DNA of 64,000 bases from Candidatus Shapirobacteria bacterium. GTDB lineage: Bacteria; Patescibacteriota; Microgenomatia; UBA12405. Position numbers and translations under genes: made by a program. The stretch spans positions 74,212 through 138,211 of the forward strand of contig JBAZTV010000002.1 of the NCBI GenBank assembly GCA_041661765.1. Direction: 5' to 3'. The notes below the pieces were generated by a model. The model saw only the letters and a list, made by a program, of their open reading frames with translations. It was not told the DNA's origin and searched no databases. Below, piece after piece: positions 1 to 57,199 of this stretch. Position 1 is the first letter of the stretch; the number at the start of each line of letters is the position of its first letter.

Positions 1-1
1 C

Positions 2-11201: not shown

Positions 11202-12017
11202 ATGAAGTTATCTATTATTATAATTACTTGGAATACTGCCAAAATAACTCAAAAATGTGTTCAGACAATTAATAAATTTCTAGACAATCCGGAAATTATT
11301 ATTGTCGACAATGGCTCTAAAGATAATACAGTTGAACTTCTTTCTCGAGAAAAAAATGTCAAAATAATAAAAAATAATTCCAATTTAGGTTTTTCCAAAG
11401 CCAACAATATCGGTTTCCAATACACTTCGAATGAATATATTCTTTTTATGAATTCTGATATCGAATTAATCAATGATTCTATTAATGATTTACTAAATTA
11501 CTTTAAAGACAAAAATAATATTGGTATTATTGGTCCAAAATTTTTAAATCCAGATCTCACTGTCCAATCATCAGTTTTCCCTAAGCAATCAGCCTTAAAT
11601 GCCTTTAAAGAATTTTTTTTATTTAAAAAAAATTCTTATTCAAAATATACTCCAAAAACCAATAACCCCATCAAAGTTTGGGCTATTTCTGGTGGTTGTA
11701 TTCTTACTCGAAAATCATTTTTTGAATCCATTGGTGGCTGGAATGAAAAATATTTTTTTTATTTTGAAGATTTAGACCTTTGTCGAAAAATAAATAAAAT
11801 TGGTAAAGACGTAATCTATTTTCCCAAATGTCAAATCATTCATCGTCATGGCGCTAGCGGTGTCAAATTAGCCGATTTTTCTAATCAATGGCGTCGTTTA
11901 ATACCCGGCAGTAAAAAATACCATGGTCTTTTTAAACACTATCTAATCAACTCAATCCTTTGGTCTGGTCAGAAATGGCAAAAAATATTTTCAAAAATAA
12001 ATTCTAAAGCAAATTAA
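11202..12017 (+). CDS. Glycosyltransferase family 2.
   Basis: LSIIIITWNTAKITQKCVQTI...IIIVDNGSKDNT...FMNSDIEL...YFEDLDLCRKI. Confidence 0.85.
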   Translation: MKLSIIIITWNTAKITQKCVQTINKFLDNPEIIIVDNGSKDNTVELLSREKNVKIIKNNSNLGFSKANNIGFQYTSNEYILFMNSDIELINDSINDLLNYFKDKNNIGIIGPKFLNPDLTVQSSVFPKQSALNAFKEFFLFKKNSYSKYTPKTNNPIKVWAISGGCILTRKSFFESIGGWNEKYFFYFEDLDLCRKINKIGKDVIYFPKCQIIHRHGASGVKLADFSNQWRRLIPGSKKYHGLFKHYLINSILWSGQKWQKIFSKINSKAN

Positions 12018-13615
12018 TTTACCAATAAATTAGGAACTTCCAAAAAATAATTTTTTGTTATTCCTTTGTATCTATCAAATTGATAGATTTTTTTCACTCC
12101 CACCTCCAAAAGTTTTTCAACCGCCTTATCATCACCAGCCACAAATAAATATCTAACAGTATTGCTTTCATCTCCTATTCCAAAATCTAATCTCCAACAC
12201 AAACTATCCTTTTTAATCCACCATTTATCACATTTATTATTTTCTAATGGTTTACTAGAAAGAATCTCATTTACATTAATAATTTCTGATTTGAGTCCAG
12301 CTTCTCTTAATAAAATCGATGATCCCTCTGGTACACCCCAAGTTCCACAAACACCAACTAATACTTTCGATTTATCTTTATTGTCAAAATATTTAATTAC
12401 TTCAGGCAAACCTAAAGCCGTCAACCCTGAAGATACAAAATAAGATTGATCATCTTTGGCATATATTGCTTTTTCTGGATTAAAGACCAACAAACAACTT
12501 TGTCCTAAAACTAAAACCATCAATAAACAAACAAACATGTCAATTTTTTTGTTCTTAAATGACAACAAAAAATCAACTCCAAAAACTGCAATCGCCAACA
12601 TTATTGGATAAGTAGCATAAATATATCTAGAAGCCATAACCTTACCAGATAAACAAATAGCCGCAGTTACAAAAACCCAATAAAATAACAACCATAAAAA
12701 TTTACGATTTTCTTTCGTAAAAATTAATTTAAATGTTCCAATCAAAACAAAAATCATTAAACCAGATAAGTATGCTCCCCAATATTGAAGAAGCAAATTT
12801 GAATAATTAAAAGCTGACAGGGGATTATCTATTAATCTTTTTATTATTTCTTGAGGTGAATATATCATCAATTTTTCCTTTTCTGCGATAGAACTCCATA
12901 AAATATGACCTCCAACTCTAAAACAGCTAATTACCTCTTTATAAAAAAACATCAAAATGATTAAACCCAAAGACATTAAAAAAATATTTTTAAATTTTTT
13001 ATTTTTTAAATAACCAATTACCCAAAAAGAGGCAATCATTAAATAAGTTACAAAAAATAATCTAGTAGTTGTTTTCGTTGCATAAGCAAACCCTAAAGAA
13101 ATTCCAGAAAATAACATACAAGCAATAAATTTTATTATTTTTCTTCTATTTTTTTCATCTAATATTTTTTTAGACAACACCAAAAACATTAAAGATAAAC
13201 TAGTAAAAGCCATTAATAAACTATCAGACAGAGCCATTCTTTCAACCAAAAAACCATAAGGGGCTATTAAAAATAGAAATAAATATATAATTGATTTTCT
13301 TAAATTAAAATATTTAGAAAAAATAATCATCCAACAAACCGCCGTCACCAAACCAGCAAATAAAGAGATTAGTCTTCCAGACAGTAAATAATTATTAATA
13401 AATGGCCCAAACGCCGATATCATCCAAAAAAATAGAGGAGTTTTTCCATCTTGAAGACTCAAATAAGCAAAATCTTTTGATTGATGAATCAAATCAGCCC
13501 AAGAAATATAAATACCTTCATCTAAATATAAAGGTGATTTTAAAATAAAAGAAAATCTCAAAACTAACAGCAAAACTACCAAAAGTGGAATAAAAATTTT
13601 GTTAATATTAGTCAC
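12014..13615 (-). CDS. GT-C membrane glycosyltransferase, ArnT/PMT-like (GT39/GT83-type), with a C-terminal soluble domain.
   Basis: GTG start at 13615, with an in-frame stop immediately upstream. First-loop acidic motif YLDEGIYISWADLIHQSKDF...DGKTPLFFW, as in the D-E loop of ArnT/PMT enzymes. About 11 TM. Convergent 4-bp stop overlap with 11202-12017. Confidence 0.75.
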   Translation of the reverse strand: MTNINKIFIPLLVVLLLVLRFSFILKSPLYLDEGIYISWADLIHQSKDFAYLSLQDGKTPLFFWMISAFGPFINNYLLSGRLISLFAGLVTAVCWMIIFSKYFNLRKSIIYLFLFLIAPYGFLVERMALSDSLLMAFTSLSLMFLVLSKKILDEKNRRKIIKFIACMLFSGISLGFAYATKTTTRLFFVTYLMIASFWVIGYLKNKKFKNIFLMSLGLIILMFFYKEVISCFRVGGHILWSSIAEKEKLMIYSPQEIIKRLIDNPLSAFNYSNLLLQYWGAYLSGLMIFVLIGTFKLIFTKENRKFLWLLFYWVFVTAAICLSGKVMASRYIYATYPIMLAIAVFGVDFLLSFKNKKIDMFVCLLMVLVLGQSCLLVFNPEKAIYAKDDQSYFVSSGLTALGLPEVIKYFDNKDKSKVLVGVCGTWGVPEGSSILLREAGLKSEIINVNEILSSKPLENNKCDKWWIKKDSLCWRLDFGIGDESNTVRYLFVAGDDKAVEKLLEVGVKKIYQFDRYKGITKNYFLEVPNLLVN

Positions 13616-13637
13616 TTCAAAATGATATCATATATTA

Positions 13638-14051
13638 ATGAATCACAGAGTTGTATTCTTCTTATGTATTCTTTTAATAGTGGGTTGGGTATTTTATTTC
13701 AAATTAAAACCAAATAATTTTTCTCTGCTTTTAAATTTTAAACAACCCACACCAGTTTCTCCTGTCTATTATTTAAAAACAACCAGAGAACAAATACAAT
13801 CCTTATTCATTATGGGCAACAGAGATTCATCTGAATGGAATTTTACCTTATCTCAAAAAAGAGCCCTAGAATCCCAAATACTTTGTGACCATAAATTGTC
13901 AGATTTAGGAAATAAACAATTATCACTGGCTCAAAAATATTATAAAACTGGAACATCTTATTTAAACAATCTTATTGATAAAATTGATACCAACTATCTA
14001 TCACAAGAAAAGGAAAAAACTGAAAATTTGATAAAAAATACTTGTAAATAA
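13638..14051 (+). CDS. Hypothetical small membrane-anchored protein (one N-terminal TM).
   Basis: 137-aa ORF with a clean ATG. It fills the gap between flanking genes and has no motif I recognise. Confidence 0.5.
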   Translation: MNHRVVFFLCILLIVGWVFYFKLKPNNFSLLLNFKQPTPVSPVYYLKTTREQIQSLFIMGNRDSSEWNFTLSQKRALESQILCDHKLSDLGNKQLSLAQKYYKTGTSYLNNLIDKIDTNYLSQEKEKTENLIKNTCK

Positions 14052-14056
14052 ATAAT

Positions 14057-15238
14057 ATGAAAAAAGTTTTTTTATTAGCCATTCTAATCCGGCTTTTAGT
14101 CATGCCTTTTTTTTATCACCCCGACATAAAATCTCAACATTTTCATTTTCAATTCTTTTCCCAAGGAGTTTTCAATATTTACGATTATTTAGACCAAAAT
14201 AAATCCACTCTAGGATACAAAGATACTTTTAATTATTTACCTTTAACCTACTACACTTTTGGACTCACTCAAGCCATCTCTAGACCGTTTTTAGGTAATA
14301 ATTTTTATCAATGGATTAATGATTGGGGAATAACCCAAAATGATTATTCCAATATGGTCTTTTTTATGTTGATATTAAAAATTCCCTATTTAATTTTTGA
14401 TTTATTAATCGGTTTTCTTTTATACAAAATATATCAAAATAAAAAAGTCTTATATTTTTGGCTTTTTAATCCAATTTCTATTTATTTAATCTATACTTTA
14501 GGTAATTTTGACATCATTCCGACATTTTTAACCCTTCTGGCTTTTTATTTTATAAAAAACAATAAGCAGTTAGCCTCATATCTTAGTATTGGTATAGCCA
14601 TTGCTCTCAAAATGTACCCCATCATGTTTTTACCTTTTTTATTTTTCTACGACAAAAAAAATATGTTCAAAAATATTAAATATGCTGTTTTTTCTTTAGC
14701 TCCTTTGTTTTTAAGCATTCTTCCATTTTTAAAACAAAAAAGTTTTTATGATTCATTTTTTGGTTCCGGACTCACTCAAAAAATTCTCGAATATAAATTC
14801 GCGGGTCTATCAATTTTCCCTATGATTTTTATTTTAATATTAATTGCCTACTTTTTTTCTAAATCAAAATATAAATTTGAAATTGCCATTTTGCAAACAT
14901 TTTTAATTTTTATCGGGTTAGTTAATTTTCATCCTCAATGGATTATGTGGTTTCTTCCTTTTATAATTATTTTTTTTATAAATTCAAAAATAAAAAACAA
15001 AATCTTTTTCACAATATTTTTTGCACTTATATTCGCTTATATTATTTTGTTTAATGATAATTATCTAACTTGGGGACATTTAATACCTATTGATTCAAAT
15101 TTTATTAACTTAACTTCACCCTATCAACTAATCGACTTAAGAACCTCAATTAATCCCTCCATTGTTCAAAAAAACATTCATAATTTACTTTTACTATTCG
15201 GTATTGTTGGATCATATTACTATGGCAAAAATAAGTAA
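14057..15238 (+). CDS. Polytopic membrane protein, family A (DUF2029/GT87-like?). Paralog of 417-1655.
   Basis: See 417-1655: YHPD, KMYP...LPF and FHPQW motifs; about 10 TM. Confidence 0.75.
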   Translation: MKKVFLLAILIRLLVMPFFYHPDIKSQHFHFQFFSQGVFNIYDYLDQNKSTLGYKDTFNYLPLTYYTFGLTQAISRPFLGNNFYQWINDWGITQNDYSNMVFFMLILKIPYLIFDLLIGFLLYKIYQNKKVLYFWLFNPISIYLIYTLGNFDIIPTFLTLLAFYFIKNNKQLASYLSIGIAIALKMYPIMFLPFLFFYDKKNMFKNIKYAVFSLAPLFLSILPFLKQKSFYDSFFGSGLTQKILEYKFAGLSIFPMIFILILIAYFFSKSKYKFEIAILQTFLIFIGLVNFHPQWIMWFLPFIIIFFINSKIKNKIFFTIFFALIFAYIILFNDNYLTWGHLIPIDSNFINLTSPYQLIDLRTSINPSIVQKNIHNLLLLFGIVGSYYYGKNK

Positions 15239-15824
15239 ATTATTAATTTTAGTCATCATTGAAATATTTTTTTTAGGATTATTATTTGTAATCTTATCTA
15301 CTATTTTTATTTGGGAACGACCAGGAGTTTCCCAAACATCATTTGAAAAAAATTTACCCCTAGATGTCAATCATTCTTATACCCAATCTATTATTTCCGA
15401 CAGAAACAATTTAAATTCCGTTTCTGTTTTACTAAAGAATCCTGGCTTGCAAAGTAGAGATATCGTTTATATAGAAATCCAAAATAATAATAAAGAAACA
15501 CTCAGATCTTTTAGTATTTCTGGTCGTGGTGTAAAAGATCCTGGTTGGTTAAATTTTAAATTTCCACCACTAAATTCAAAAAAAGGTGATATTTTTCTTT
15601 TAAAAATTAGTAGTAATAGTCAAAAAGATAATCTTCTTTATGTTTATGGTGATCAAAATACTCAAAATATTAATTTCAAAACCACTTTCACCGCTGAAAA
15701 TATAAAAGAATCGTTCAAGGACAATTTAAATCAACAAATAGCTAATTTTCAATCAAGAAATATTTTTCAAACCGTTTTTTATTTATTCTTAATTTTCCTA
15801 GTCGATATTCTTATCTTAATTTAA
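15222..15824 (+). CDS. Hypothetical bitopic membrane protein (N- and C-terminal TM with a central extracytoplasmic domain).
   Basis: ATG at 15222. The track start at 15162 is TTG and overlaps the upstream gene by 77 bp in another frame. No recognisable motif. Confidence 0.5.
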   Translation: MAKISKLLILVIIEIFFLGLLFVILSTIFIWERPGVSQTSFEKNLPLDVNHSYTQSIISDRNNLNSVSVLLKNPGLQSRDIVYIEIQNNNKETLRSFSISGRGVKDPGWLNFKFPPLNSKKGDIFLLKISSNSQKDNLLYVYGDQNTQNINFKTTFTAENIKESFKDNLNQQIANFQSRNIFQTVFYLFLIFLVDILILI

Positions 15825-15847
15825 GATAAGATATTAAATATCTTAAA

Positions 15848-17590
15848 ATGAAAAATAAATCGATTATTTTTAAAATTTCCCTGGCTATTCTTCTTGTTTT
15901 CTCTTTATTTCTTTATTTATACAAAAACACCACAATTCCACCTTCTTTATATTCAGACGAAGCCGATATTAATTACCAAGCCTTTATTTTTAATAAATAT
16001 CACACCGATTATTACGGCAATAAATTTCCTATTCATTTTCATTCATATTCTGACTGGCAACCATCTTTTTTTATTTATTCAGTTGCTTTAACTCAAAAAA
16101 TAATCGGCCACACTGATTCTTCAGTCAGAATTCCAGCGGCTGTTTTTGGAACTTTAACAGTTCTGGTTTTTTGTCTAATTATCAAACTTTTATTAAACAG
16201 TAATATTTGGTCAATTATCGGCGGATTTTTGCTGACCATTTCTCCCTGGCTTTTTCACTACAGTCGTACTGGTTTTGCTGTAACTAATATGCTTTCTTTA
16301 ACCCTTTTAGGTATTTATTTTTGGATAAAATTTATTAAAAATAATCAAGTCAAAAATCTTTTTATTTCCATTATTTCTTTTTCTCTGCTAACTTATTCCT
16401 ATAGTACCGCTAAATTACATCTAATTTTTATTTTTTTAACCCTTTATTTAATTTGGTTTAAAATTATCAATAAAATTTCTCTCAAAAATAAATTAATTAC
16501 CATTTTTTTAGTAATTTTAATTTGTTTACCAGTATTTTCAGACACCCTCAAAGGTCGTGCCGGCTATCGTTTTTCCTACATTAACATTTTTAGCGATCCA
16601 ACAATTAGTAAAACTGTTGATTATTCTCGTCAAGAGGATTCTGCTATGGTTTATGGCCCTCAAATAGGTCTTAAACCTCTATTTATTTCTAAAATTTTTT
16701 ATAACAAACCAGTTCAGTGTTTAGAAATGTTTACTAAAAATTATTTTTCTTCCTTTTCAACCGATTTTCTCTTTTTAAAAGGCGACGGTAATCTACGACA
16801 AGGTATTCAAACCGTTGGTAATTTATTATTTCCTGATTTCTTTTTAATTATCATTGGAATTTCTATAGTTTTCGTCAAAAAATCATCAAATAGTAAATTT
16901 TATCTATTTTTCCTAATCAACTTAATTCTCTCTCCAATTCCATTTGCTTTAACTCGCGATTCTCTCTATCCTCATGCCACTCGTCTAATCTTGATGCTAC
17001 CGTTTTTAATTTTCTTTTCCATTCTTGGACTTAAACAAATTTTTGAAATTACTAAATCCAAATTTTTAATTGCTTTTATTCTATTTTTGTATGTAATCTG
17101 CTTCGGTCGATTTATCCACCAATATTATTTTCATTATCCAAACATTTCTGCTCGTGATTGGCATTATGGAATGAAACAAGCCATTATCAAAGTTCAAAAT
17201 AAAAATTATCAAAAAATCTATTTTATTAATTCTTATGAGCCATTTACTCCTTTCTTTTTAAATTATATTGAATATCTACCATTAAAACAAAATATTTCTC
17301 CTGCTTTATCATTAGTTTCTGAAAACAATCAATTTTTTACTGGTATGCAGGCTGATAACACATATTATCTCGGCAATATTGAATGGTCTGTTTTGTTTAA
17401 TAATCCTCCTTCAAATGCTCTTTTTATTATTCCCAATCAGGACTTAATTAGAGCTCAAAACAGTCTTAACGATTACAATAAAAATCATCAAGACAAAATT
17501 AATTTTAATCAAATAGATAAAGTCTCTAAAAAATATACTGAACAAGAAGAATTTTATTTAGTCACTTTTGATCTAGCAAAAACTAAATAG
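15848..17590 (+). CDS. GT-C membrane glycosyltransferase, ArnT/PMT-like.
   Basis: YSDEADINYQAFIFNKYHTDYYGNKFP in the first extracytoplasmic loop. About 12 TM plus a C-terminal soluble domain. Paralogous to 20910, 22570 and 24194. Confidence 0.75.
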   Translation: MKNKSIIFKISLAILLVFSLFLYLYKNTTIPPSLYSDEADINYQAFIFNKYHTDYYGNKFPIHFHSYSDWQPSFFIYSVALTQKIIGHTDSSVRIPAAVFGTLTVLVFCLIIKLLLNSNIWSIIGGFLLTISPWLFHYSRTGFAVTNMLSLTLLGIYFWIKFIKNNQVKNLFISIISFSLLTYSYSTAKLHLIFIFLTLYLIWFKIINKISLKNKLITIFLVILICLPVFSDTLKGRAGYRFSYINIFSDPTISKTVDYSRQEDSAMVYGPQIGLKPLFISKIFYNKPVQCLEMFTKNYFSSFSTDFLFLKGDGNLRQGIQTVGNLLFPDFFLIIIGISIVFVKKSSNSKFYLFFLINLILSPIPFALTRDSLYPHATRLILMLPFLIFFSILGLKQIFEITKSKFLIAFILFLYVICFGRFIHQYYFHYPNISARDWHYGMKQAIIKVQNKNYQKIYFINSYEPFTPFFLNYIEYLPLKQNISPALSLVSENNQFFTGMQADNTYYLGNIEWSVLFNNPPSNALFIIPNQDLIRAQNSLNDYNKNHQDKINFNQIDKVSKKYTEQEEFYLVTFDLAKTK

Positions 17591-19194
17591 AAACAAAAAA
17601 TTATTGTTGATAATGTTATTAAATCCAATATTTTATTTAAAATAGTTTCTTCATACTTAATTGTAATTTCATGTTTTCCATTTGGCACCAAAAATTGAAT
17701 TTGACCATAAGGTTTACTTGCTATTAAATTTAATTTTTCACCATCAATAAATCCTTTCCATCCAGGAAAATAATATTTATTATAATTTAAAACCAATTCA
17801 GACTCAGAATCTGTTATAAATTTTGTCTCCAAGCTATTAACCAAAGTTATATTTTCAATCGCTTCACTGACTGGATAAACTCGGTCATAAATCTGAGTCG
17901 GTCTAATTTCAGTAGTTTTTGGTAATCGTAAATATTCTTCTTGAAGAGTGAGATACTCCTCACTTGGAGTCGGAACTGGAATATAACGATTAATATAATA
18001 ACTATCATCTCTATTTAAAAAATCATGTGGCCTAAAACGGGGTGTGTTTATAACCATAGAAACCATAATAATTATCACCGCCAATATATTTGAGTATTTA
18101 AAGTTTTTAATTAAAATAACTAGTAACGACGAAGCAAAAACAATCATAGTTAAAAATCGCCAGGGAAATTGAAAATAAGCAATAAGCGGAATATGTTCCC
18201 AAAACCAATAAGACCTAAAGTTCATCATAAACACTGAAACTACAACCAAAAATAAACTCCAAATTGATATTTTTTTAATTTTTAAAGAAATTTTAGAAAA
18301 ACGAAAAATTATAAAAATCGTCGCTACTATTAAAACTATCAAATTAATTTCTCCAACAAAAAAAGACATTCCATCATAAGGCCCAGGCACCGACGCTCCA
18401 TATCCCCAAAAAGGAGTTATTAGTTGTTTTAATGTCGGAAAATGATCAAAAAAATTAAAAACCGTACTATATTTCATTAAATTACTTTCCAAAAGAGCTG
18501 GTAACCAAAAATATATACTCCCTATTAATCCCAAGAAAAACAAAAAGAAAAACTCTTTTATTTTTTCCTTCTTCATAACTAAAAGTGCAAATAATAAAGC
18601 AAATGGAATAAACATATAAGAAACAATATTGTGAGTCAAGATCAATGCTGTTATTGATAACCCCCCAATTCCTACCCACTTAAAATTCTCCTTTTTACTT
18701 TTTACTTCAGCTAATCTAATTAAAGAAAATATTATTAATGGTAAAAACACAAAAGCCAAAGACTCGCCCAATGCTCCTCTGTCATAAATATCAGTTGAGC
18801 GATATGGAGTATAAATATAAAGCACTGCTGCCGCCATACCCACAAATTTTCCTGATAAATGTCTTGCTAAAAAATACATTGTAATCGCGGAAATTAATAA
18901 ACTAAAGATAAAAACAGCTTTGATACTATATACAAAATTCAATCCTAATAAATGAAATATTTCACCTAAGTAATAGGGGAGTGGAAATATAAAGTTAAAT
19001 AAAGGATAACCAAACCCAAAACTCAAATCAGACACATATCTAGGTGGTATCTGTCCTTCGGTAACAGCTTGATCCATTTGCTGCAACCAAGCAATGTGCA
19101 TGTCATCAGATGCTCCAAAAAAACCAGGCCTTATTAAGGCCAACATCGCAGGAACTACTAATAAAACCAATATTAATAATTCTTTTATTTTCAT
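17554..19194 (-). CDS. Polytopic membrane protein, family B (GT-C-like?).
   Basis: ASDDMHIAWLQQMDQAVTEGQIPPRYVSDLSFGFGYPLFNF...FQFPWRFL. Paralog of 1648-3372 and 19191-20876. Its 3' end overlaps 15848-17590 convergently by 37 bp. Confidence 0.75.
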   Translation of the reverse strand: MKIKELLILVLLVVPAMLALIRPGFFGASDDMHIAWLQQMDQAVTEGQIPPRYVSDLSFGFGYPLFNFIFPLPYYLGEIFHLLGLNFVYSIKAVFIFSLLISAITMYFLARHLSGKFVGMAAAVLYIYTPYRSTDIYDRGALGESLAFVFLPLIIFSLIRLAEVKSKKENFKWVGIGGLSITALILTHNIVSYMFIPFALLFALLVMKKEKIKEFFFLFFLGLIGSIYFWLPALLESNLMKYSTVFNFFDHFPTLKQLITPFWGYGASVPGPYDGMSFFVGEINLIVLIVATIFIIFRFSKISLKIKKISIWSLFLVVVSVFMMNFRSYWFWEHIPLIAYFQFPWRFLTMIVFASSLLVILIKNFKYSNILAVIIIMVSMVINTPRFRPHDFLNRDDSYYINRYIPVPTPSEEYLTLQEEYLRLPKTTEIRPTQIYDRVYPVSEAIENITLVNSLETKFITDSESELVLNYNKYYFPGWKGFIDGEKLNLIASKPYGQIQFLVPNGKHEITIKYEETILNKILDLITLSTIIFCFYLVFARSKVTK

Positions 19195-20876
19195 AATAAA
19201 TATTTTTTCTTACTAAAAAAAATTATAATCATACTTATTAATGTTAACAAACTTAAGATATCTCCTATTTGCCTCGGAATAGTTTTTTCCAGTTTAACAA
19301 TTATTTGATGCGAACCTTTATTCAAGTTGAAACTTATTTGTCCAAAACAAAAATCTTGGTTACTGCAATCATTATGGTTAAAAGAAACTGGCAAATTATC
19401 AACAGTCACTTTCATTCCCGGAAAATCAAATATAGGTAATCTTATTTTGGTAACATCACTATCCACATTTATTTCCCCAGTCTGGTAATTACTCCCTTTT
19501 TTGTAATTTTTTACCTCTGCTTTTCCCTCAGTAATTTCCGGAACTTCAGGTGCTTTATAATTTGGCGGTAAAACAGCATTACTTGGTAAATAATCAAAAA
19601 TACTTGCGGTTTGTTGTTTTAAAAATTCTTGACCAGTTAATAATTGCTGATCATTAATCTCTATCCACTTCTGTGGTTTGAAGAAATTTCCATATAAGCA
19701 AAATAATAATAAAACTGTCACTACCATTATTATTTTTTTACCCTTACTACTAAAATAATTAATTGCATATCCAGATAATAATGATAAAAGAAAAGCATTA
19801 ACCACTAAAAATCTCCAAGGAAATTGGAACATAGCCATAAAACCAAAACTTTCCCAAATAAATGCCGATCTTTGATGAATTAGAAAAATAGTTAACAAAC
19901 TTATTCCAGCCAAAACCAAAATAATAATACTATTTTTCTTAGATTTTTTATAATTTTTTATGGCTAAAATTACTCCTATTAAAGATAGTATCCAATGTAT
20001 TTGTCCTACTGAAAGCGATAAATCATCACCTGGGCCCAATTGAGATGAACCATATCCCCAATGATTTGAAATAAATAATTGATATAAATTTACAAAATGT
20101 TGTCGATAATCAAAATAACCACCAGTCATACTATCGAGATGGATATAACCTCTTTCAAAAATTAAAGGCACTATAAAAAATGAAGCCAATCCTGCTCCAA
20201 TTAAAAAGGCCCACAAAATTTTCCATAATTTTTTAATATTTTTTTCTTGTATTAATAAAACAAGTATCCATATTCCTAATATTGGAAAAAACGCCACAGA
20301 CATTAAATTATGCGTCACAAATAAACTAAAAATTGCCAAACCAAAATATAAAACATTATTTTTACCTAAACCTTTAATAATTCGATACGAAAATAAAAAC
20401 AAAAATGGGAATATTGCTAAAGATAAAAATTCACCCAACGACCCTCTTACATAAACTTGAACTGCTCTTACTGGAGCATAAACATACAACAAAGAACCAG
20501 TAAGTGCGACTATTGAATTAGTAAATAAAGTAGACAGTAACCAAAACATTCCTATTCCAGATATTATGAAACCTAGTATAAAAAGTATTTTTACTGAGTC
20601 AATATATTGAAATCCTAAATTATGAAAAACAGTTCCTAAATAATAAGGACCAGGTGAATAATATAAAAACAACGGATACCCAAAACCATACCCCATATCA
20701 GGCACCCAACGGCAAGGTATTTGACCATCCTCAAAACATTTCTCCATTTCATAAATTCGAAAATATTGCATACTATCCTGAATATTATGAATTCCTGGTT
20801 TAAGAATTGTCACAAAAGCTGGAATCGTAAATAAAACTACAGCTAATAGCCAAATACAACGTTTCATATTAATCAT
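19191..20876 (-). CDS. Polytopic membrane protein, family B (GT-C-like?).
   Basis: IQDSMQYFRIYEMEKCFEDGQIPCRWVPDMGYGFGYPLFLYY...FQFPWRFL. The 4-bp overlap with 17554-19194 suggests translational coupling. Confidence 0.75.
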   Translation of the reverse strand: MINMKRCIWLLAVVLFTIPAFVTILKPGIHNIQDSMQYFRIYEMEKCFEDGQIPCRWVPDMGYGFGYPLFLYYSPGPYYLGTVFHNLGFQYIDSVKILFILGFIISGIGMFWLLSTLFTNSIVALTGSLLYVYAPVRAVQVYVRGSLGEFLSLAIFPFLFLFSYRIIKGLGKNNVLYFGLAIFSLFVTHNLMSVAFFPILGIWILVLLIQEKNIKKLWKILWAFLIGAGLASFFIVPLIFERGYIHLDSMTGGYFDYRQHFVNLYQLFISNHWGYGSSQLGPGDDLSLSVGQIHWILSLIGVILAIKNYKKSKKNSIIILVLAGISLLTIFLIHQRSAFIWESFGFMAMFQFPWRFLVVNAFLLSLLSGYAINYFSSKGKKIIMVVTVLLLFCLYGNFFKPQKWIEINDQQLLTGQEFLKQQTASIFDYLPSNAVLPPNYKAPEVPEITEGKAEVKNYKKGSNYQTGEINVDSDVTKIRLPIFDFPGMKVTVDNLPVSFNHNDCSNQDFCFGQISFNLNKGSHQIIVKLEKTIPRQIGDILSLLTLISMIIIFFSKKKYLL

Positions 20877-20909
20877 TATAGCTTAATTAAATGTTAACAT
20901 TATACAAAC

Positions 20910-22586
20910 ATGTCTAAGTTCTACACGATTATTTTTGGATTCATTTTAGTCATTGGATTACTAACTCGTTTTATTAATTTAGATAAATTTCCAGTTGCCC
21001 TAAATTGGGATGAAATTAGTCATGGTTACAACGCCTACAGTTTAATTAATACTGGTAAAGATCAATGGTCAACATCTTGGCCCATTTTTAACTTCCGAGC
21101 CTACGGCGATTATCCCACTATTCTCAATATGTATCTTTCCATGCCTTTTATTTATTTTTTCGGTCTCAACGAATGGACAGTTCGAATTGTTTCTGCCTTT
21201 TGTGGCTTTGGCTTAATTATTATCGCTTTTTTCTTAGGTCAAGAAATTTTTAAAAACAAGAAAAAATCTCTTTTATTAATGTTATTAGTCGTACTATCTC
21301 CTTGGACATTTTTTCCATCGCGCGGTGTTTTTCAGTCAACAGTTGCTCAATTTTTTTTCTCTCTCGGACTTTTATTTTTAATCAAAGCCATCAAAAAAAT
21401 AAAATTTCTTCCACTCGGGATTTTCTTTTTTTCTATTTCTACCTACGCCTATCACAATACTAAAATTGTCGTTCCAATTTTACTTTTAACTTACTTCCTT
21501 ATTTTCTTTAAAGAGATTAAACAAAAAATTTCAAAACATAAAAATTTTTTTACAATCAGTTTATTAGTTCTTTCCATTTTAGTAATCCCTCAATTAATCA
21601 ACACTTTTAATAAAGAAGCTCAAGCCCGAAGTCGCTGGGTTTTTATTATTAATCCAGCATCTATTAATGAAATTGAAAATAATCGTAATATTTATCAAGG
21701 CAGTCAATTAGTCGCCAAACTAAAATATAATCGAGTTACTCTTTTTAGCACTACCGTTTTCAAAAATTATTTAGATTTTGTTAATCCTAAAATTTTATTT
21801 TTCAACAGCACTCAAAACTTTCAATTTAATATCCCCAACACTGGCGTTCTTTATTCTGTTTACTTACCGTTCTTTTACATCGGCCTAATAATTTTAATTT
21901 TAAAATCCATAAAAAAAAGCTCCCCTGAAAATAAAAAATATATTTTTCTTAATTTTTGGTTTTTAATCGGTCTAATCCCCGCAGTTATCACAATCGGTGA
22001 TTTTCCTATTATTCGGGCCATGACAATTTTGCCGCTTCCTCAAATCTTTATAGTTTATGGTTTTTTTAAAACCATTTCCTTTTTAAAAAATTCCAAAACA
22101 AAAACAATTTTTACTATTTTATTTTTAATAATTCTAATTATTCAATCATTTTCATATTTCAAAAATTATTTTAACGACTATTCCCAAAATTATTCTAGTT
22201 CTTGGCAGTACGGGTATAAAGAAACTGTCAATTATATAAAAGAAAATTATAATAGTTACGATCAAATTATTTTTACTAAAAAATATGGCGAAGCCCATGA
22301 ATTTGTTTTATTTTATTGGCCATGGAACCCAAAATCTTACCAAAACGACCCAAATTTAAATTGGGATTTCCATGCCGATTGGTATTGGGTAAATGCATTT
22401 GATAAATTTAAATTTATCAATGATTGGGAAATCAAAAAAGAAACTGAAAAGTTAGATAAAAAAACCCTTTTAATCACCTCTCCAGGCAATTATAATAAAA
22501 GCAATAGCGCATTAATCAAAACCGTTTATTTTCTCAACCAAACACCGGCTTTTGATATTTTAAGCATCAATGATCAAAAACAATAA
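20910..22586 (+). CDS. GT-C membrane glycosyltransferase, ArnT/PMT-like. First of a tandem triplet.
   Basis: NWDEISHGYNAYSLINTGKDQWSTSWPIFNFRAYGDYP...RIVSAF. Confidence 0.8.
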   Translation: MSKFYTIIFGFILVIGLLTRFINLDKFPVALNWDEISHGYNAYSLINTGKDQWSTSWPIFNFRAYGDYPTILNMYLSMPFIYFFGLNEWTVRIVSAFCGFGLIIIAFFLGQEIFKNKKKSLLLMLLVVLSPWTFFPSRGVFQSTVAQFFFSLGLLFLIKAIKKIKFLPLGIFFFSISTYAYHNTKIVVPILLLTYFLIFFKEIKQKISKHKNFFTISLLVLSILVIPQLINTFNKEAQARSRWVFIINPASINEIENNRNIYQGSQLVAKLKYNRVTLFSTTVFKNYLDFVNPKILFFNSTQNFQFNIPNTGVLYSVYLPFFYIGLIILILKSIKKSSPENKKYIFLNFWFLIGLIPAVITIGDFPIIRAMTILPLPQIFIVYGFFKTISFLKNSKTKTIFTILFLIILIIQSFSYFKNYFNDYSQNYSSSWQYGYKETVNYIKENYNSYDQIIFTKKYGEAHEFVLFYWPWNPKSYQNDPNLNWDFHADWYWVNAFDKFKFINDWEIKKETEKLDKKTLLITSPGNYNKSNSALIKTVYFLNQTPAFDILSINDQKQ

Positions 22587-24210
22587 ACTTTTTCTAATAA
22601 TTATTTTTTTAATTGCCTTTTTCTTAAGGTTTTACAAGGTAGGGGAATATCCAACTTTTCTTTGGGATGAAGCTTCACTCGGTTACAATGCCTATTCAAT
22701 TATTGAAACTGGTAAAGACGAATATGGCCAAACTTTACCAATTATTTTTAAATCATTTGGCGACTATAAACCTGGTCTTTATGTTTATTTAGCCATTCCA
22801 TTTATTAAAATTTTTGGACTAACAACCACCACTACTCGTTTACCGTCAATAATTTTAGGTTCTCTTCTGCCAATTCTAATCTACTTTCTAATTAAAGAAA
22901 TCAACCCCAAAGCCCACAAGACCGCTATTTTTGCCGCTCTTATTACTGTCTTCAATCCTTATTCAATTCATTTTTCTCGTGGCGCCTGGGAAAGTAATGT
23001 CTTAACTTTTGAATTAGTATTGGCTTCTTTTCTCTTTTTTAAATACATCAACAAAAAAAATGATAAATATCTTTTTTGGTCCGCAATTATTTTTGGTTTG
23101 ACACTTTTTACTTATCAGGCCGGAAAAATGATCAGTCTTTTTTTGATCGTTATTTTATTTTTAATCAATTTCAAAATAGTCAACAAAAAAAATATCAAAA
23201 GTTTATTTTTAAATTTTATTTTACCCCTTCTGATTTTTTCAGCCCCCATAGTTTATGGCTTATTTTTCGGAAGTAATGCCAATCGCTTAAAAGTCGTCAG
23301 TCTTTTTTCTTATCCTCGCTCCGCTCAAGAGTCCAATATTATCATTAATGAAAGTAACCAATTAGATTATGAAATTTTCCATAATCACACTTCTTTTTTT
23401 GGTCGCGGATTTTTACTTCGCTATTTTAATCATTTTTCGCCCAAATTCTTAGCCTTTGAAGGTGATTGGCAAAATCCTCGACAATCAGCTCCTTATATTG
23501 GTGTAATTCTTTATCCAAGTTTAATTTTTCTAATCTTAGGTATATTTTTTGCCTTAAGTCGCCCAAAAATTGACAAAATTAATATTTTCTTCTTACTCTG
23601 GCTTTTAATTGCCCCAATTCCTGCCGCTCTTACTCGCGACACTGTTCAAGGCCTTCGTTCTATGTCTTTTTCCATTCCTTTAATTTATTTTATTTCTCTT
23701 GGTATTTATTTCATCGTCAACAAATATAAAAATATTTTTCTCTATTGCTTGATTTTTGGTGCTTATTTACTTTCTTTCATTTATTACAGTGACCTTTATT
23801 TGAATCACATGATTAAAAAAAGTCCCGATGATTTTCTTTATGGCTATCAACAATCAATGGAATATTTGGTCAAAAATCAAAATAAATTTCAAAACATTAT
23901 CATGAGTGATTATTACGGCCAAGCATATATTTTTTATCTTTTCTATTCAAAATATCCGCCACAATCTTATCAGCAACAAGCTAAACTAATCGAAAATTTA
24001 TCAGGTGACACCGGCAAAATCGAGCAAATTGATAATATTAAATTTACCACTCCTGACTATAATTCAATCAAAAATCAACCCAACACATTAGCAATTTTTA
24101 ATTACAACGAAATTTATCGCCAATTTATCGATAAATCCAATAATTTTAAAGACTTCTTACCATTAAGCCCAATCAATAATATTTCCACTTTTTATGCTTA
24201 CCAAAATTAA
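22570..24210 (+). CDS. GT-C membrane glycosyltransferase, ArnT/PMT-like. Second of the tandem triplet.
   Basis: LWDEASLGYNAYSIIETGKDEYGQTLPIIFKSFGDYKPGLYVYLAIPFIKIFGL. Overlaps neighbours by 17 bp. Confidence 0.8.
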   Translation: MIKNNKLFLIIIFLIAFFLRFYKVGEYPTFLWDEASLGYNAYSIIETGKDEYGQTLPIIFKSFGDYKPGLYVYLAIPFIKIFGLTTTTTRLPSIILGSLLPILIYFLIKEINPKAHKTAIFAALITVFNPYSIHFSRGAWESNVLTFELVLASFLFFKYINKKNDKYLFWSAIIFGLTLFTYQAGKMISLFLIVILFLINFKIVNKKNIKSLFLNFILPLLIFSAPIVYGLFFGSNANRLKVVSLFSYPRSAQESNIIINESNQLDYEIFHNHTSFFGRGFLLRYFNHFSPKFLAFEGDWQNPRQSAPYIGVILYPSLIFLILGIFFALSRPKIDKINIFFLLWLLIAPIPAALTRDTVQGLRSMSFSIPLIYFISLGIYFIVNKYKNIFLYCLIFGAYLLSFIYYSDLYLNHMIKKSPDDFLYGYQQSMEYLVKNQNKFQNIIMSDYYGQAYIFYLFYSKYPPQSYQQQAKLIENLSGDTGKIEQIDNIKFTTPDYNSIKNQPNTLAIFNYNEIYRQFIDKSNNFKDFLPLSPINNISTFYAYQN

Positions 24211-25816
24211 TAAATTACCATTAATAATTATTCTTATCGTTGCCATTTTAATTCGTTTTATTAATATTGGCTCCATGCCATCACTTAATGCCGACGAGGC
24301 TGCTCTCGGTTACAATGCCTACTCCCTTATCGAAACCGGTAAAGACGAACACGGCATCTCTTGGCCTCTTCATTTTAAATCATTTGGGGATTACAAACCG
24401 GGCGGCTATGTATATTTAGCCATACCTTTCGTCAAAATTTTTGGCCTCACACCATTGGCTGTCAGATTGCCAAATTTGATACTTTCTATATTAACTATCC
24501 TTTTTTTATACAAATTAATTTTCCTTTTATCAAAAAATAATAAACTAGCAGTTTTAACTGCTGCTGTTTTAACTTTTTCACCATGGCACATTCATTTTAG
24601 TCGCGGCGCCTGGGAATCTTCCGCAGCCCTCTCTTTTATTATAATTGGCACCTATTTTTTCTTCAAATCAATCAAAGAAAAATTTTTATTAAATTTTAAT
24701 TTGTTTGTTGTTCTTTATGTTTTATCACTTTACATTTATCATTCAGCTCGTCTAATTGCTCCACTTTTAGCATTAACTTTGATTGTTCTTTATTTCAAAA
24801 ATTTAATTAAAAAATTCCCTCAAATTTTAATTCCTCTTTTTATTGGTGTTCTTTTGGCCATACCGGTAACTTATTCCTTTTTACAAAATGGAGGAACCGC
24901 CCGTATCGGTGGTGTTGGCTTAACTGCCGATCAAGGCCCAATTTGGCGTGCTAACGAGCTTTTAAATCATCATAATAATGTCAAATTAATTAATCGCATC
25001 ATGCACAACAAAAGATTTCTTTATTTAATTTCTTGGAGTCAAAAATATACTTCTCATTTTGATTTAAATTTTTTAGCTATTAATGGCGACGAAGTCCCTC
25101 GTTCTAAAGTTCCCGAAATGGGTCAAATTTATTTAATTGAGTTGCCCTTTCTTTTTCTCGGTCTCATTTTTCTTCTCAAATCTACGATCTATGATCGACG
25201 ATCTAAAATCTTTCTTATTGCCTTTTTATTAATCGCCCCAATTGCTTCATCCTTAACCTATCAAGCACCATCCGCCCTCAGAGCCCTTTCTATGGTTGTT
25301 CCCTTATCAATTTTAATTGCTCTTGGAATTTACTCTTTCTTTTCTTTTTTTAAAAATAAAAATATTTTAAAGGTAATTTCCATCATATTCATTACTATCT
25401 ATGGATATTTTGTCACCTATTATTTTGATGCTTATTTTGTTCATTATCCTAAAAGATACCCTTATGCCTGGGAATATGGCTTTGATCAATTAGTCCCTTA
25501 TTTGGAAAGTCAAAAAAATAATTACGACAAAGTTTACGTCACCGACAAATATGACCAACCATATATTTTATTTTTATTTTTTTCTAAATATCCGCCAGAA
25601 AAAATTCAACAAGAAATAAAACTAACTTCCCCTGATCAATATGGTTTTTCTACTGTCCTAAATTTCGATAAATACATTTTTCAAAAAATTGAATGGGGTA
25701 AGATTCCTCCAAATTCACTAGTTGTAACCAGTGATGAATTAGTTCCACTTGAACCTTTTAAAATTATTAATTTCCCAAATGGACAACCAGGGTTTAAAAT
25801 CTATTCAAAACAATGA
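24194..25816 (+). CDS. GT-C membrane glycosyltransferase, ArnT/PMT-like. Third of the tandem triplet.
   Basis: NADEAALGYNAYSLIETGKDEHGISWPLHFKSFGDYKPGGYVYLAIPFVKIFGL. About 60-70% identical to 22570-24210 in this loop. Confidence 0.8.
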   Translation: MLTKINKLPLIIILIVAILIRFINIGSMPSLNADEAALGYNAYSLIETGKDEHGISWPLHFKSFGDYKPGGYVYLAIPFVKIFGLTPLAVRLPNLILSILTILFLYKLIFLLSKNNKLAVLTAAVLTFSPWHIHFSRGAWESSAALSFIIIGTYFFFKSIKEKFLLNFNLFVVLYVLSLYIYHSARLIAPLLALTLIVLYFKNLIKKFPQILIPLFIGVLLAIPVTYSFLQNGGTARIGGVGLTADQGPIWRANELLNHHNNVKLINRIMHNKRFLYLISWSQKYTSHFDLNFLAINGDEVPRSKVPEMGQIYLIELPFLFLGLIFLLKSTIYDRRSKIFLIAFLLIAPIASSLTYQAPSALRALSMVVPLSILIALGIYSFFSFFKNKNILKVISIIFITIYGYFVTYYFDAYFVHYPKRYPYAWEYGFDQLVPYLESQKNNYDKVYVTDKYDQPYILFLFFSKYPPEKIQQEIKLTSPDQYGFSTVLNFDKYIFQKIEWGKIPPNSLVVTSDELVPLEPFKIINFPNGQPGFKIYSKQ

Positions 25817-26640
25817 AAAATTCAAAAAGAACCATTTCAGTAGCTATTGCCACTTATAATGAAGAAAACAATATTGAGCGATGTTTAAACGCCGTGTCTG
25901 ACTGGGTCGACGAAATAATCATTGTCGATGGTAATTCTCAGGATAAAACCATCGAGGTTGCCTCTAAATTTAAAAAGGTCAAAATAATAAAAACCACCAA
26001 CAAACCAATTTTTCATATCAATAAAAATATTGCTATTGACGCTTGTACTAGTGATTGGATTCTTCAACTCGATGCTGATGAAATTGTCACCCCGGAGCTC
26101 AAAAAAGAAATCATTTCGTATTTAGAAAAAAATATCGATGATGTTAAACAAAATGGTTTTTGGATTCCAAGGAAAAATTATTTTCTCGGTGCTTTTTTAA
26201 AAAAAGGCGGTCAATATCCCGACCCCACCATTAGATTTTATAAAAAAGGAAAAGGACGTCTTCCGTGTGTCGATGTCCATGAACAAGCCGAAATAGAAGG
26301 GGCTGTGGGTTGGCTTAAAAATGATTTAGAACATTACGCCGACACTTCTTTTTCCAAATATCTTCTTCGCCATAATCGTTACACCACACTTTTAGCCCAA
26401 GAATTACAAGAGAAAAAAACAAAAATAAATTTTATAAATTTTATAAATTTTTACCTTTATAAACCGACCTGGTGGTTTTTAAAAACTTTTTTTCGTCACC
26501 GTGGCTATGTTGACGGCTTTCCTGGTTTTGTTTTTTCTTTCTATTCCGCCTTAAGATTCCCAATTTTTTACACTAAATATTGGGAATTGGTCAAAACCAA
26601 TCGTCAAATCGACTTAAAAAATGATTGGGATAAAAAATAA
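25813..26640 (+). CDS. Glycosyltransferase family 2 (LPS-core type). Paralog of 6486 and 8334.
   Basis: ISVAIATYNEENNIERCLNAVSDWVDEIIIVDGNSQDKT...LDADE. C-terminal YWELVK. Confidence 0.8.
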   Translation: MKNSKRTISVAIATYNEENNIERCLNAVSDWVDEIIIVDGNSQDKTIEVASKFKKVKIIKTTNKPIFHINKNIAIDACTSDWILQLDADEIVTPELKKEIISYLEKNIDDVKQNGFWIPRKNYFLGAFLKKGGQYPDPTIRFYKKGKGRLPCVDVHEQAEIEGAVGWLKNDLEHYADTSFSKYLLRHNRYTTLLAQELQEKKTKINFINFINFYLYKPTWWFLKTFFRHRGYVDGFPGFVFSFYSALRFPIFYTKYWELVKTNRQIDLKNDWDKK

Positions 26641-27720: not shown

Positions 27721-28513
27721 TAATCATTTTCTATCGGTCATAATCCCTATCTATAAACAAGAAAAAACCATTAAAAAAGATCTTCAAACCATAAACGAAA
27801 CTCTCAAACAAATTCGTTACAACTACGAAATTATCGCCGTTGTTGATGGTACTTCGATTGATAAATCACTTAAAGAAATCAAAAAATTAAAATTAAAAAA
27901 CCTAAAGGCTTTTGGTTACAAAACTAACCATGGTAAAGGCTATGCGGTTCGTTATGGCATGGCCAAAACCCAAGGCGATTACATTGCCTTTATTGATTCC
28001 GGCATGGAAATCGACCCTAATGGGATTTCTTTAGTATTAGAACACATGGAATGGTACAACGCCGATATAATAGTTGCTTCCAAGCGTCACCCAGCATCAA
28101 TGGTAAATTACCCATTAGATAGGAGAATTATTAGTTTTGGTGCCCATATTATTTCCAAATTTTTATTAGGAATTAATGTTCACGATACTCAAGCCGGATT
28201 AAAAATTTTCAAACGACCAGTTTTAATAAAAGTTCTTCCACGCCTTCTAGTCAAAAACTATGCTTTTGATCTAGAAATTTTATCGGTTGCTAATAAATTA
28301 GGATTTACTAAAATTTACGAAGCCCCAATTAAATTAAATTACGACTTTAAAAGTTTAACTCACGCCACTGGTCTTAAAACTATTTATAGTTGTCTTATGG
28401 AAGCTCTCGCTGTTTTTTATAGACTCAAAATTCTAAATTATTACGACGATAAAAATAAAAGAAAATGGGTTTACGATCCAGAATTAGAAATGAGAATTAA
28501 TACTGGAAAATAA
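27710..28513 (+). CDS. GT2 polyprenyl-phosphate glycosyltransferase (DPM1/GtrB-like, soluble form).
   Basis: FLSVIIPIYKQEKTIKKDL...IIAVVDGTSIDKS...FIDSGMEIDPNGI...HDTQAGLKIF. No C-terminal TM pair. Confidence 0.65.
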   Translation: MKNSNHFLSVIIPIYKQEKTIKKDLQTINETLKQIRYNYEIIAVVDGTSIDKSLKEIKKLKLKNLKAFGYKTNHGKGYAVRYGMAKTQGDYIAFIDSGMEIDPNGISLVLEHMEWYNADIIVASKRHPASMVNYPLDRRIISFGAHIISKFLLGINVHDTQAGLKIFKRPVLIKVLPRLLVKNYAFDLEILSVANKLGFTKIYEAPIKLNYDFKSLTHATGLKTIYSCLMEALAVFYRLKILNYYDDKNKRKWVYDPELEMRINTGK

Positions 28514-57189: not shown

Positions 57190-57199
57190 AAAATTAATT

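Follow-up and report, generated by a model that had tools for sequence, protein, structure and literature searches.

A conserved array of GT-C membrane glycosyltransferases in Candidatus Shapirobacteria and its likely part in envelope glycan assembly

A 64-kb stretch of DNA from Candidatus Shapirobacteria, a member of the Microgenomates within the Candidate Phyla Radiation (CPR), carries an array of membrane glycosyltransferases of the GT-C type. The stretch, called the window below, comprises 64,000 nucleotides (GenBank assembly GCA_041661765.1, contig JBAZTV010000002.1, positions 74,212 to 138,211); its base composition is 29-30% GC and 96.6% of it is coding. Eight GT-C genes lie in the segment 12014-25816, and the window as a whole holds 13 full-length GT-C genes and one fragment. 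Three of them stand in tandem at 20910-25816, and this triad is kept in order in 62 of the 80 related loci that we analysed. On balance, we favour the view that the paralogues act one after the other, each with a non-redundant step of its own, on one envelope glycoconjugate conserved throughout the lineage, in an ancient assembly line that operates outside the cytoplasm; the segment would then form, as we think somewhat probable, the core of a cell-envelope glycan island of about 70 kb.

A first-pass annotation of the window had reported at least six ArnT/PMT-like genes, namely five full-length open reading frames (ORFs) and a C-terminal fragment at 2-394. All five ORFs are present at exactly these coordinates, and reading frames of that length in DNA of 29% GC are not due to chance. 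A Pfam scan of all ORFs of at least 100 aa, which together cover 96.6% of the window, placed each of the five above the cut-off of PMT_2 (26.1 bits) or PMT (22.7 bits); the cut-offs of two further families are 26.4 bits for PTPS_related and 25 bits for GT87. By all-against-all BLAST, Pfam, profile-profile comparison (hhalign) and two structure predictions, the GT-C set sorts into at least seven sequence groups, A to E, U1 and U2. The five ORFs and the fragment fall into groups A and B:

15848..17590, plus strand: group-A GT-C, 580 aa; PMT_2 47.4 bits, PMT 19.0 bits (below cut-off)
20910..22586, plus strand: group-A GT-C, gene 1 of the triad, 558 aa; PMT_2 28.3 bits, PMT 18.3 bits (below cut-off)
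22570..24210, plus strand: group-A GT-C, gene 2 of the triad, 546 aa; PMT 48.7 bits, PMT_2 41.7 bits
24194..25816, plus strand: group-A GT-C, gene 3 of the triad, 540 aa; PMT 25.8 bits, PMT_2 21.0 bits (below cut-off)
12014..13615, minus strand: group-B GT-C, 533 aa; PMT_2 27.9 bits, no PMT match; 11 hydrophobic segments; first loop LDEGIY
2..394, plus strand: group-B GT-C, C-terminal 130 aa of a protein of 513 aa

The stub at 2-394 has no Pfam match by itself. It is continued on contig L006, which matches positions 1-7000 of the window at 100% identity and reaches 6.6 kb further upstream, and there it forms the last 130 aa of the full 513-aa protein (L006 positions 5509-7050; PMT_2 27.1 bits, first loop GDEAIY), which is 29% identical to 12014-13615 (E 1e-30). 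The fragment had thus been recognized correctly, and group B as a whole aligns with group A at 99.1% in hhalign. All six copies are real; the count of at least six fell short by eight GT-C genes of the window, three in the segment (14057, 17554, 19191) and five elsewhere (417, 1648, 4757, 39005, 54315). Two further PMT_2 proteins (32.8 and 30.9 bits) stand just upstream on L006. Over the roughly 70 kb made up by the window and the upstream part of L006 we count 16 GT-C genes, four DPM1/GtrB/ArnC-like synthases and one Wzx flippase.

The four group-A paralogues are 26-37% identical to one another; 24194 and 22570 form the closest pair (37%), and 15848 shares 26-29% with the other three. Their C-terminal domains had been described as divergent. 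Identity is indeed lower there (16-31%, against 25-38% for the membrane part), but the domains can still be aligned; they are somewhat more divergent, not unrelated. Neighbouring triad genes overlap by 17 nt, and the last of them overlaps the following gene by 4 nt. The triad genes are probably translationally coupled, and their products may work as a hetero-oligomer, by analogy with Pmt1-Pmt2 and EmbA-EmbB.

Assignment to a solved or curated family proved more difficult. None of the five ORFs matches a curated NCBIfam equivalog, ArnT included; the best NCBIfam matches are weak, with 15848 and 22570 reaching 37 and 52 bits against TIGR03663 (Agl23; cut-off 126), and the other match among the five, to the LA_3751/3752 family, lies far under its cut-off. 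The PMT_4TMC and MIR domains were not found in any copy (Pfam, E<=0.01). Relatives are named 'phospholipid carrier-dependent glycosyltransferase' or 'glycosyltransferase family 39 protein' at NCBI and 'ArnT-like' in the JGI annotation. When 22570, 12014 (minus strand) and 19191 (minus strand) were used as single phmmer queries against the PDB, nothing was found even at E<=1, and a profile of 48 sequences gave only a weak match to STT3 (E 0.007). As sequence alone cannot link these GT-Cs with any solved family, their structure had to be predicted.

An AlphaFold2 (AF2) model of 22570-24210, built from a 42-sequence alignment, reached a mean confidence (pLDDT) of 85.3 and a predicted TM-score (pTM) of 0.87. 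Its 34 best Foldseek matches in the PDB are all GT-C enzymes (TMq 0.32-0.52, probability 0.98-1.0): STT3, PglB, AglB, ArnT (5F15, 5EZM), ALG9, Pmt4, Pmt1/2, EmbA/B/C, AftD and AftB; unrelated transporters rank only below them. The models cover two of the 13 GT-Cs, the second being that of 4757-6466 (U1), and the rest were placed by Pfam and hhalign. A hydropathy scan counted 8-11 hydrophobic segments in each of the five ORFs and 8-12 in all 13 full-length candidates, and both AF2 models are likewise rich in helices; GT-C enzymes are defined as having 7-13 transmembrane helices (PMC11127046). With both the Pfam matches and the predicted fold of 22570-24210 in hand, the GT-C assignment stands, and we identify the five ORFs, by family matches and modelled structure, as membrane glycosyltransferases of the GT-C fold and of the PMT/PMT_2 clan. 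This confirms the GT-C identity that had been proposed for them, while the interpretation attached to it is partly supported: of the label 'ArnT/PMT-like' the clan membership holds, and family-specific criteria identify no orthologue of ArnT (GT83) or of classical PMT (GT39).

The first extracytoplasmic loop of such enzymes had been said to carry a long acidic motif in all copies. The D-E pair is present in all six; only 22570 and 24194 preserve the complete string D-E-x3-Y-x-A-Y...GKD...FGDYKP, whereas 20910 and 15848 carry degenerate versions and 12014 (minus strand) has none of it past DE. Across 48 aligned group-A sequences from every paralogue lineage, D33, E34, Y39, A41, D50, R90, Y182, R239 and R363 are invariant. 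First-loop acidic residues recur in the other groups: both group-B proteins have DE, group C has DD or D, group D has HPD, U2 has an invariant D46 and U1 has H45-D46. Given the invariant D-E and the other fixed residues, all group-A copies look catalytically competent as far as their alignment tells.

In order to place the array in its lineage, a group-A profile was run against one genome per species, which returned at least 584 relatives, and the best 80 loci were analysed. All of these 80 lie on metagenome-assembled genomes (MAGs) of Shapirobacteria, Woesebacteria, Microgenomates or Patescibacteria, or on MAGs whose label is evidently wrong. The order 20910, 22570, 24194 is kept in 62 of the 80 loci, and two of the three genes are adjacent in 16 more. 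All 43 loci that span 20 kb or more hold 5-8 GT-C genes (median 7), with 3-7 group-A copies, mostly 5-6; the four found here are fewer than in most relatives. Of the loci that extend for 8 kb or more beyond the triad (49 in number), a GT2 gene follows in 48, a GT4 in 46, a DPM1-like GT2 in 38, a membrane GT2 in 28 and a radical SAM enzyme in 28. The DPM1-like protein (27710-28513) is the best-conserved member of this module, at 46-98% identity. The product of 22570-24210 is identical to an NCBI protein from a Candidatus Shapirobacteria MAG, and its orthologues are 63-92% identical. Orthologues in the array share 38-92%, against 26-37% between paralogues. Since orthologues are more alike than paralogues down to Woesebacteria, the duplications predate the radiation of these lineages. 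The 'extreme expansion' reported earlier, in so far as it implies a peculiarity of this genome, is thus not borne out; by these sequence relationships it is an old, fixed gene cluster, found from Shapirobacteria to Woesebacteria and other Microgenomates.

The taxonomic titles of some of the related genomes deserve a remark. The MAGs with loci L008, L010, L013 and L015-L017, and many other GTDB representatives from SRP*/binchicken assemblies, go under the title 'uncultured Gammaproteobacteria bacterium'; another is listed as a 'Clostridia bacterium' and two more as 'Parcubacteria'. All of them carry orthologues of 40-81% identity to the Shapirobacteria protein in the same synteny, and their titles are almost certainly placeholders or wrong taxonomy, to judge from these sequences.

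The remaining GT-C genes of the window belong to groups C, D and E and to the two divergent families U1 and U2:

1648..3372, plus strand: group-C GT-C of the PTPS_related type; PMT_2 25.3 bits (below cut-off); 35% identical to 19191-20876 (minus strand), E 1e-103
17554..19194, minus strand: group-C GT-C (PTPS_related); PTPS_related 27.4 bits, PMT_2 22.8 bits
19191..20876, minus strand: group-C GT-C (PTPS_related); PTPS_related 28.3 bits
14057..15238, plus strand: group-D, GT87-like GT-C; GT87 (PF09594) 31.0 bits, cut-off 25
417..1655, plus strand: group-D, GT87-like GT-C; 37% identical to 14057-15238, E 3e-52; GT87 weak, 15.8 bits; 9 hydrophobic segments
39005..40783, minus strand: group-E GT-C of TMTC-like architecture (C-terminal TPR domain); many TPR matches, PMT_2 23.2 bits (below cut-off); 11 hydrophobic segments
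54315..55880, plus strand: U2, divergent PMT_2-type GT-C; no Pfam match of its own, 21 of 38 homologues match PMT_2
4757..6466, plus strand: U1, 'hypothetical' polytopic protein whose GT-C fold is closest to STT3/AglB/PglB; likely start 4778 (562 aa); directly after the Wzx gene

Profile comparison with group A by hhalign gave 96.1% for group C, 94.5% for group D, 93.7% for group E and 95.7% for U2, with the first-loop Asp of U2 aligned. In many related loci, an orthologue of 19191-20876 precedes the triad. The U2 family is rare, with 148 matches in 1.84 billion representatives. Two small single-pass membrane proteins, 13638-14051 (weak DUF5667 match) and 15162-15824, sit between the GT-C genes; we considered them as conserved accessory factors, but they occur in only one and six close relatives, respectively, and with such a restricted distribution they are probably not core components.

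U1 has no Pfam match, STT3 included, even at E<=1, and the WWDYG motif is absent from both its sequence and the consensus of a 45-sequence family. Homologues number 1529, mostly in Shapirobacteria. Its AF2 model (pLDDT 89, pTM 0.90) has GT-C enzymes as its 24 best Foldseek matches, of which the top 18 are oligosaccharyltransferases (STT3/AglB/PglB; E 3e-8 to 4e-6); DPY19 and AftA rank lower, and the C-terminal globular domain matches AglB 3VU0. This ranking is not very specific for STT3, because the group-A model ranks STT3 first too. We place U1 among the GT-Cs from its predicted structure only, and it may represent a new family of enzymes that serve as en-bloc transferase, ligase or polymerase of oligosaccharides. 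Because of its position after Wzx we also considered a Wzy polymerase and an O-antigen ligase; the model matches STT3-type GT-Cs instead.

Besides the 13 GT-Cs, the full-length glycosyltransferases of the window (n=28) comprise 12 GT2 enzymes, donor synthases included, and three GT4 enzymes. Genes relevant to the supply and export of sugars are as follows:

3345..4799, plus strand: Wzx/MOP-family flippase; Polysacc_synt_3 155 bits, Polysacc_synt 87.7 bits
6402..12017, plus strand: six cytoplasmic glycosyltransferases (five GT2, one GT4); Glycos_transf_2 and Glycos_transf_1 matches
25813..27720, plus strand: GT2 and GT4 directly after the triad (Pfam)
27710..28513, plus strand: DPM1-like GT2 and candidate synthase of a polyprenyl-phosphate sugar; residues 8-213 match Dol-P-Man synthase 5MLZ (E 3e-9); GtrB E 1e-8
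28516..30910, plus strand: membrane-anchored GT2 and radical SAM enzyme (Pfam), both conserved behind the triad in Shapirobacteria
55921..59024, minus strand: DegT aminotransferase (324.6 bits), GtrB/ArnC-like glycosyltransferase (57200-58141) and NAD epimerase/dehydratase (96.6 bits)

The Wzx flippase and both polyprenyl-phosphate sugar synthases named in the first-pass annotation were recovered. The product of 57200-58141 (minus strand) is GtrB-like: it matches GtrB 5EKP over its full length, C-terminal membrane helices included (E 9e-60), and ArnC more weakly (E 1.5e-20), and scores 208 bits for PgfS. That of 27710-28513 is a candidate whose best solved relative is the archaeal Dol-P-Man synthase 5MLZ, the whole catalytic domain being covered. 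On L006, upstream of the window, lie two short GT2s with matches to ArnC (E 3e-17) and DPMS (E 5e-13). A control GT2, 25813-26640, matches GmaR/SunS instead, so that the synthase matches are not a generic effect of the GT2 fold. Each synthase stands next to a GT-C gene: the pairs are 920/1806 and 4758/5509 on L006, while in the window 27710 adjoins the triad and 57200 is paired with 54315. Judged by this context of four adjacent synthases, one of them conserved with the triad, the GT-Cs would use polyprenyl-phosphate sugar donors.

Several observations on these neighbouring genes may be added. The rare GT-C at 54315 is divergently transcribed from the DegT, GtrB/ArnC-like GT2 and epimerase set, and the whole (54315-59024) resembles an Arn-like module; its gene content suggests a pathway for a polyprenyl-phosphate aminosugar donor with a transferase of its own. 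The GT2 that follows the triad (25813-26640), like 6402-7421 and 8334-9122, has as its best solved relatives enzymes that glycosylate proteins or peptides, namely Listeria GmaR, a flagellin O-GlcNAc transferase, and the S-glycosyltransferase SunS, over the N-terminal 100-160 residues only. Two radical SAM enzymes (29411-30910 and 36576-38090), one with a clear B12-binding domain, lie amid many SAM methyltransferases. The former, which Shapirobacteria keep downstream of the triad, may perform C-methylation or another unusual sugar modification.

How, then, would the array work? According to the successive-steps reading, which we prefer because the paralogues are old, 1:1 orthologous, kept in order and in possession of their D-E pair, and because their neighbourhood is of the polysaccharide type, the cytoplasmic GT2 and GT4 enzymes would assemble a glycan on a polyprenyl carrier, and Wzx and/or the ABC-2 transporter would export the carrier-linked glycan. 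DPM1/GtrB-like enzymes would charge polyprenyl phosphate with single sugars at the inner face of the membrane, and the products would then be flipped. At the outer face, each GT-C paralogue would add a single sugar, at a position or in a linkage specific to it, to the exported glycan or to protein, and the variable peripheral copies would contribute strain-specific decoration. Some points weigh against this scheme. No GtrA-type flippase (PF04138) was found among window ORFs of at least 100 aa, although a Wzx-type flippase is an accepted alternative to GtrA (PMC8035078), nor did the window yield an initiating phosphoglycosyltransferase. Some of the Pfam scores exceed the cut-off only marginally (27-28 bits) or lie below it (25.3 for 1648, 23.2 for 39005). 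The 80 loci were chosen with group-A motifs and are not an unbiased sample of the lineage, and counts at related loci come from BLAST comparisons of raw ORFs with 250 aa or more, in which frameshifted genes may be counted twice or missed. Finally, the conserved order fits a stable hetero-complex, or a fixed set of acceptor-specific enzymes, equally well.

Acceptor-specific enzymes were also what the first-pass annotation had in mind when it proposed multiple acceptors. Spelled out, the array would on this reading be a panel of PMT-like protein O-glycosyltransferases, each transferring sugars from a polyprenyl-phosphate donor to Ser/Thr of its own acceptor class (S-layer proteins, pilins, sortase-anchored proteins). 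The PMT family (PF02366) passes its cut-off in 22570 and 24194, while it stays below it in 15848 and 20910 and is absent in 12014; the NCBI name 'glycosyltransferase family 39 protein' of relatives, the TMTC-type protein O-mannosyltransferase architecture of the TPR-bearing 39005-40783 and the greater divergence of the C-terminal domains point the same way, and many Microgenomates/CPR possess sortase and type IV pili (PMC6744442). Against these stand the missing MIR and PMT_4TMC domains and the surroundings, since 15 cytoplasmic GT2/GT4 genes, Wzx, an ABC-2 exporter and sugar-modifying enzymes make up a typical polysaccharide locus, and PMT_2-type GT-Cs of Gram-positive bacteria act on teichoic acids and wall polysaccharides (PMC8035078). 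A pathway accounts for the fixed order and 1:1 orthology at least equally well, and these two features argue for steps of one pathway rather than for multiple acceptors. We therefore consider separate protein acceptors a minority possibility.

A surface-variation machinery, in which Gtr-like seroconversion modules are rapidly gained and lost and provide alternative glycan decoration against phages or for hosts, would agree with the variable number of group-A copies (3 to 7 among related genomes), with the coming and going of groups B, C, D, F and G, and with the GT-A/GT-C pairs, which recall gtrB/gtrC modules (PMC11127046). It is nevertheless improbable for the array as a whole and tenable for the peripheral copies only, as the triad and its downstream genes keep their order from Shapirobacteria to Woesebacteria (62/80 loci), the orthologues have kept their full length and invariant catalytic residues, contrary to what fast turnover would produce, and none of the scanned ORFs of the window looked like a phage or mobile-element gene. 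Still less probable, in our estimate, is that some copies are not transferases at all and serve as accessory subunits or as lipid-linked-sugar flippase helpers replacing GtrA. Such a role would be in line with the name of TIGR03663, 'flippase activity-associated protein Agl23', the best NCBIfam match of 15848 and 22570, with the lack of a GtrA-family protein in the window, and with the gene overlaps, which suggest a complex. However, the 37 and 52 bits of these matches are far under the 126-bit cut-off, the D-E pair and several Arg and Tyr residues are invariant across group-A lineages as in active enzymes, and a Wzx-type flippase is already there.

Comparison with known systems shows likenesses of several kinds. 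By mechanism the array comes nearest to two of them, the multi-component transmembrane glycosylation systems of Gram-positive bacteria and the embCAB/Aft/PimE machinery of mycobacteria. In mycobacteria, GT-C enzymes assemble the wall through the embCAB tandem operon, AftA-D, MptA-C and the GT87 enzyme PimE, with Ppm1 as donor synthase. The Shapirobacteria locus likewise has tandem paralogous GT-Cs in a conserved operon and combines PMT_2-like and GT87-like enzymes with a GT2 similar to Dol-P-Man synthase; Emb, AftA, AftB and AftD are among the Foldseek matches of the group-A and U1 models, and the proposed logic of building a glycan stepwise outside the membrane would be the same. In contrast to mycobacteria, there is no Emb or Aft membership by sequence, carbohydrate-binding C-terminal domains of the Emb type were not detected by Pfam, genes of the decaprenyl-phospho-arabinose (DPA) pathway were not seen, and the genome is about 1 Mb in size. 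With GT39 PMTs (Pmt1/2/4, POMT, bacterial Pmt) and TMTC the array shares PMT/PMT_2 matches, the D-E of loop 1, structural matches to Pmt4 and Pmt1-Pmt2, and one TPR-bearing GT-C; yet the PMT cut-off is reached by just two of the five ORFs, the PMT structures matched are 13-19% identical, and MIR and PMT_4TMC were not found here. Bacterial Pmt is not known to carry MIR either, so that the missing MIR excludes the eukaryotic type only.

GT87 (PimE-like) kinship applies to 14057-15238, which passes the cut-off; its paralogue 417-1655 scores only 15.8 bits but is 37% identical to it. Only 4757-6466 resembles GT66 (STT3/AglB/PglB), through its top 18 Foldseek matches, its AglB-S2-like (3VU0) C-terminal domain and the Wzx gene upstream; without a Pfam STT3 match or WWDYG, this resemblance is one of fold. 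ArnT (GT83) is among the top structural matches of the 22570 model (5F15/5EZM, TM about 0.5), and the DegT (ArnB-like), ArnC-like and epimerase set next to the GT-C 54315-55880 recalls arnBCADTEF. Unlike in the arn operon, the ArnB/ArnC-like pair (55921-58141) lies about 30 kb from the segment and beside a different GT-C, the NCBIfam ArnT model is not matched, and 57200-58141 is closer to GtrB than to ArnC. CPR genomes are reported to lack lipid A/LPS (lipopolysaccharide) genes (PMC5220378), and ArnT's acceptor therefore does not exist. The suggestion that the host has no outer membrane agrees with reports that CPR bacteria are without a Gram-negative envelope (PMC6744442; PMC5220378).

In monoderm bacteria, systems of a GT-A enzyme, a flippase and a GT-C are established, with GT-As of the CsbB/GtrB type, GT-Cs of the PMT_2 or YfhO type and flippases of the GtrA or Wzx type (PMC8035078; PMC11127046). 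They include GtrABC, CsbB-GtcA-YfhO, YkcBC, CsdAB/CD/EF, GacI-L and PgfS/PgfM. Similarly, the GtrB-like 57200-58141 and three DPM1/ArnC-like GT2s adjoin GT-C genes here, the flippase is of the Wzx type as in the S. pyogenes variant, and the host is monoderm-like. The scale and arrangement differ: in the known systems each GT-A is paired with one GT-C, and a genome has 1-3 such pairs, whereas about 16 GT-Cs and four candidate synthases occur here in about 70 kb, with a three-gene GT-C operon conserved class-wide and no GtrA-type flippase found.

The rest of the window also contains genes of sugar metabolism and export: the two B12/radical-SAM enzymes already described, about seven methyltransferases, two DegT aminotransferases, an FdtA-like isomerase, a hexapeptide acyltransferase and an ABC-2 exporter pair. 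A CofD/YvcK-family protein (40814-41800, 128 bits) lies between the TPR-bearing GT-C and an Acyl_transf_3 membrane acyltransferase (41835-42905), whose family suggests O-acylation of an exported glycan. At the edge of the sugar-modification cluster (59006-62780), genes of the DmpF/DmpG-like acetaldehyde dehydrogenase and 4-hydroxy-2-oxovalerate aldolase type are followed by an acetolactate-synthase-like enzyme dependent on thiamine pyrophosphate (TPP). TPP enzymes such as YerE make branched-chain sugars. The gene 47507-49015 encodes a soluble protein of 502 aa that matches nothing in Pfam or the PDB. It contains a perfect 21-bp tandem repeat (47630-47738, 5.2 copies, 100% match) coding for LIEEKNN heptads, which resemble a coiled coil; the repeat could vary in length. 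Around the gene stand a GT2, a HAD phosphatase, a cytidylyltransferase-like gene and an ABC-2 exporter; the guess from these neighbours that it is a TagF-like glycerophosphotransferase was not supported by Pfam at E<=1 or by phmmer against the PDB.

In summary, a biochemistry of this kind is to be expected; its scale, its conservation in a minimal genome and the presence of hidden GT-C families are not. The structure of the CPR envelope has been described as unclear (PMC5220378), and papers on CPR record just many glycosyltransferases along with an unresolved envelope. We found no description of multi-GT-C or PMT/ArnT-like arrays in CPR, Microgenomates or Shapirobacteria, in a search that left most subscription journals uncovered and is hence no proof of absence. 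The 28 glycosyltransferases of this one 64-kb window compare with 20 reported for an entire Parcubacterium genome; in CPR genomes of about 1 Mb, in which many basic pathways are missing, investment in glycosyltransferases on such a scale stands out. Two GT-C families that were unannotated or barely detectable (4757-6466, 54315-55880) are added to the catalogue, and the triad together with the DPM1-like synthase provides a marker cluster for Microgenomates and an entry point to the chemistry of the CPR envelope. A fuller version of our proposal, in which 5-8 or more GT-Cs build a lineage-defining Microgenomates envelope glycoconjugate, the triad is heteromeric and U1 founds a new family of en-bloc transferases or ligases, is one that we put forward only tentatively and regard as rather doubtful at present. 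If true, it would constitute a functional counterpart of mycobacterial arabinogalactan and lipoarabinomannan (LAM) synthesis and reveal a previously unknown type of bacterial cell-envelope polymer. The scale and conservation of the array imply an essential surface structure, plausibly for attachment to a host or for protection.

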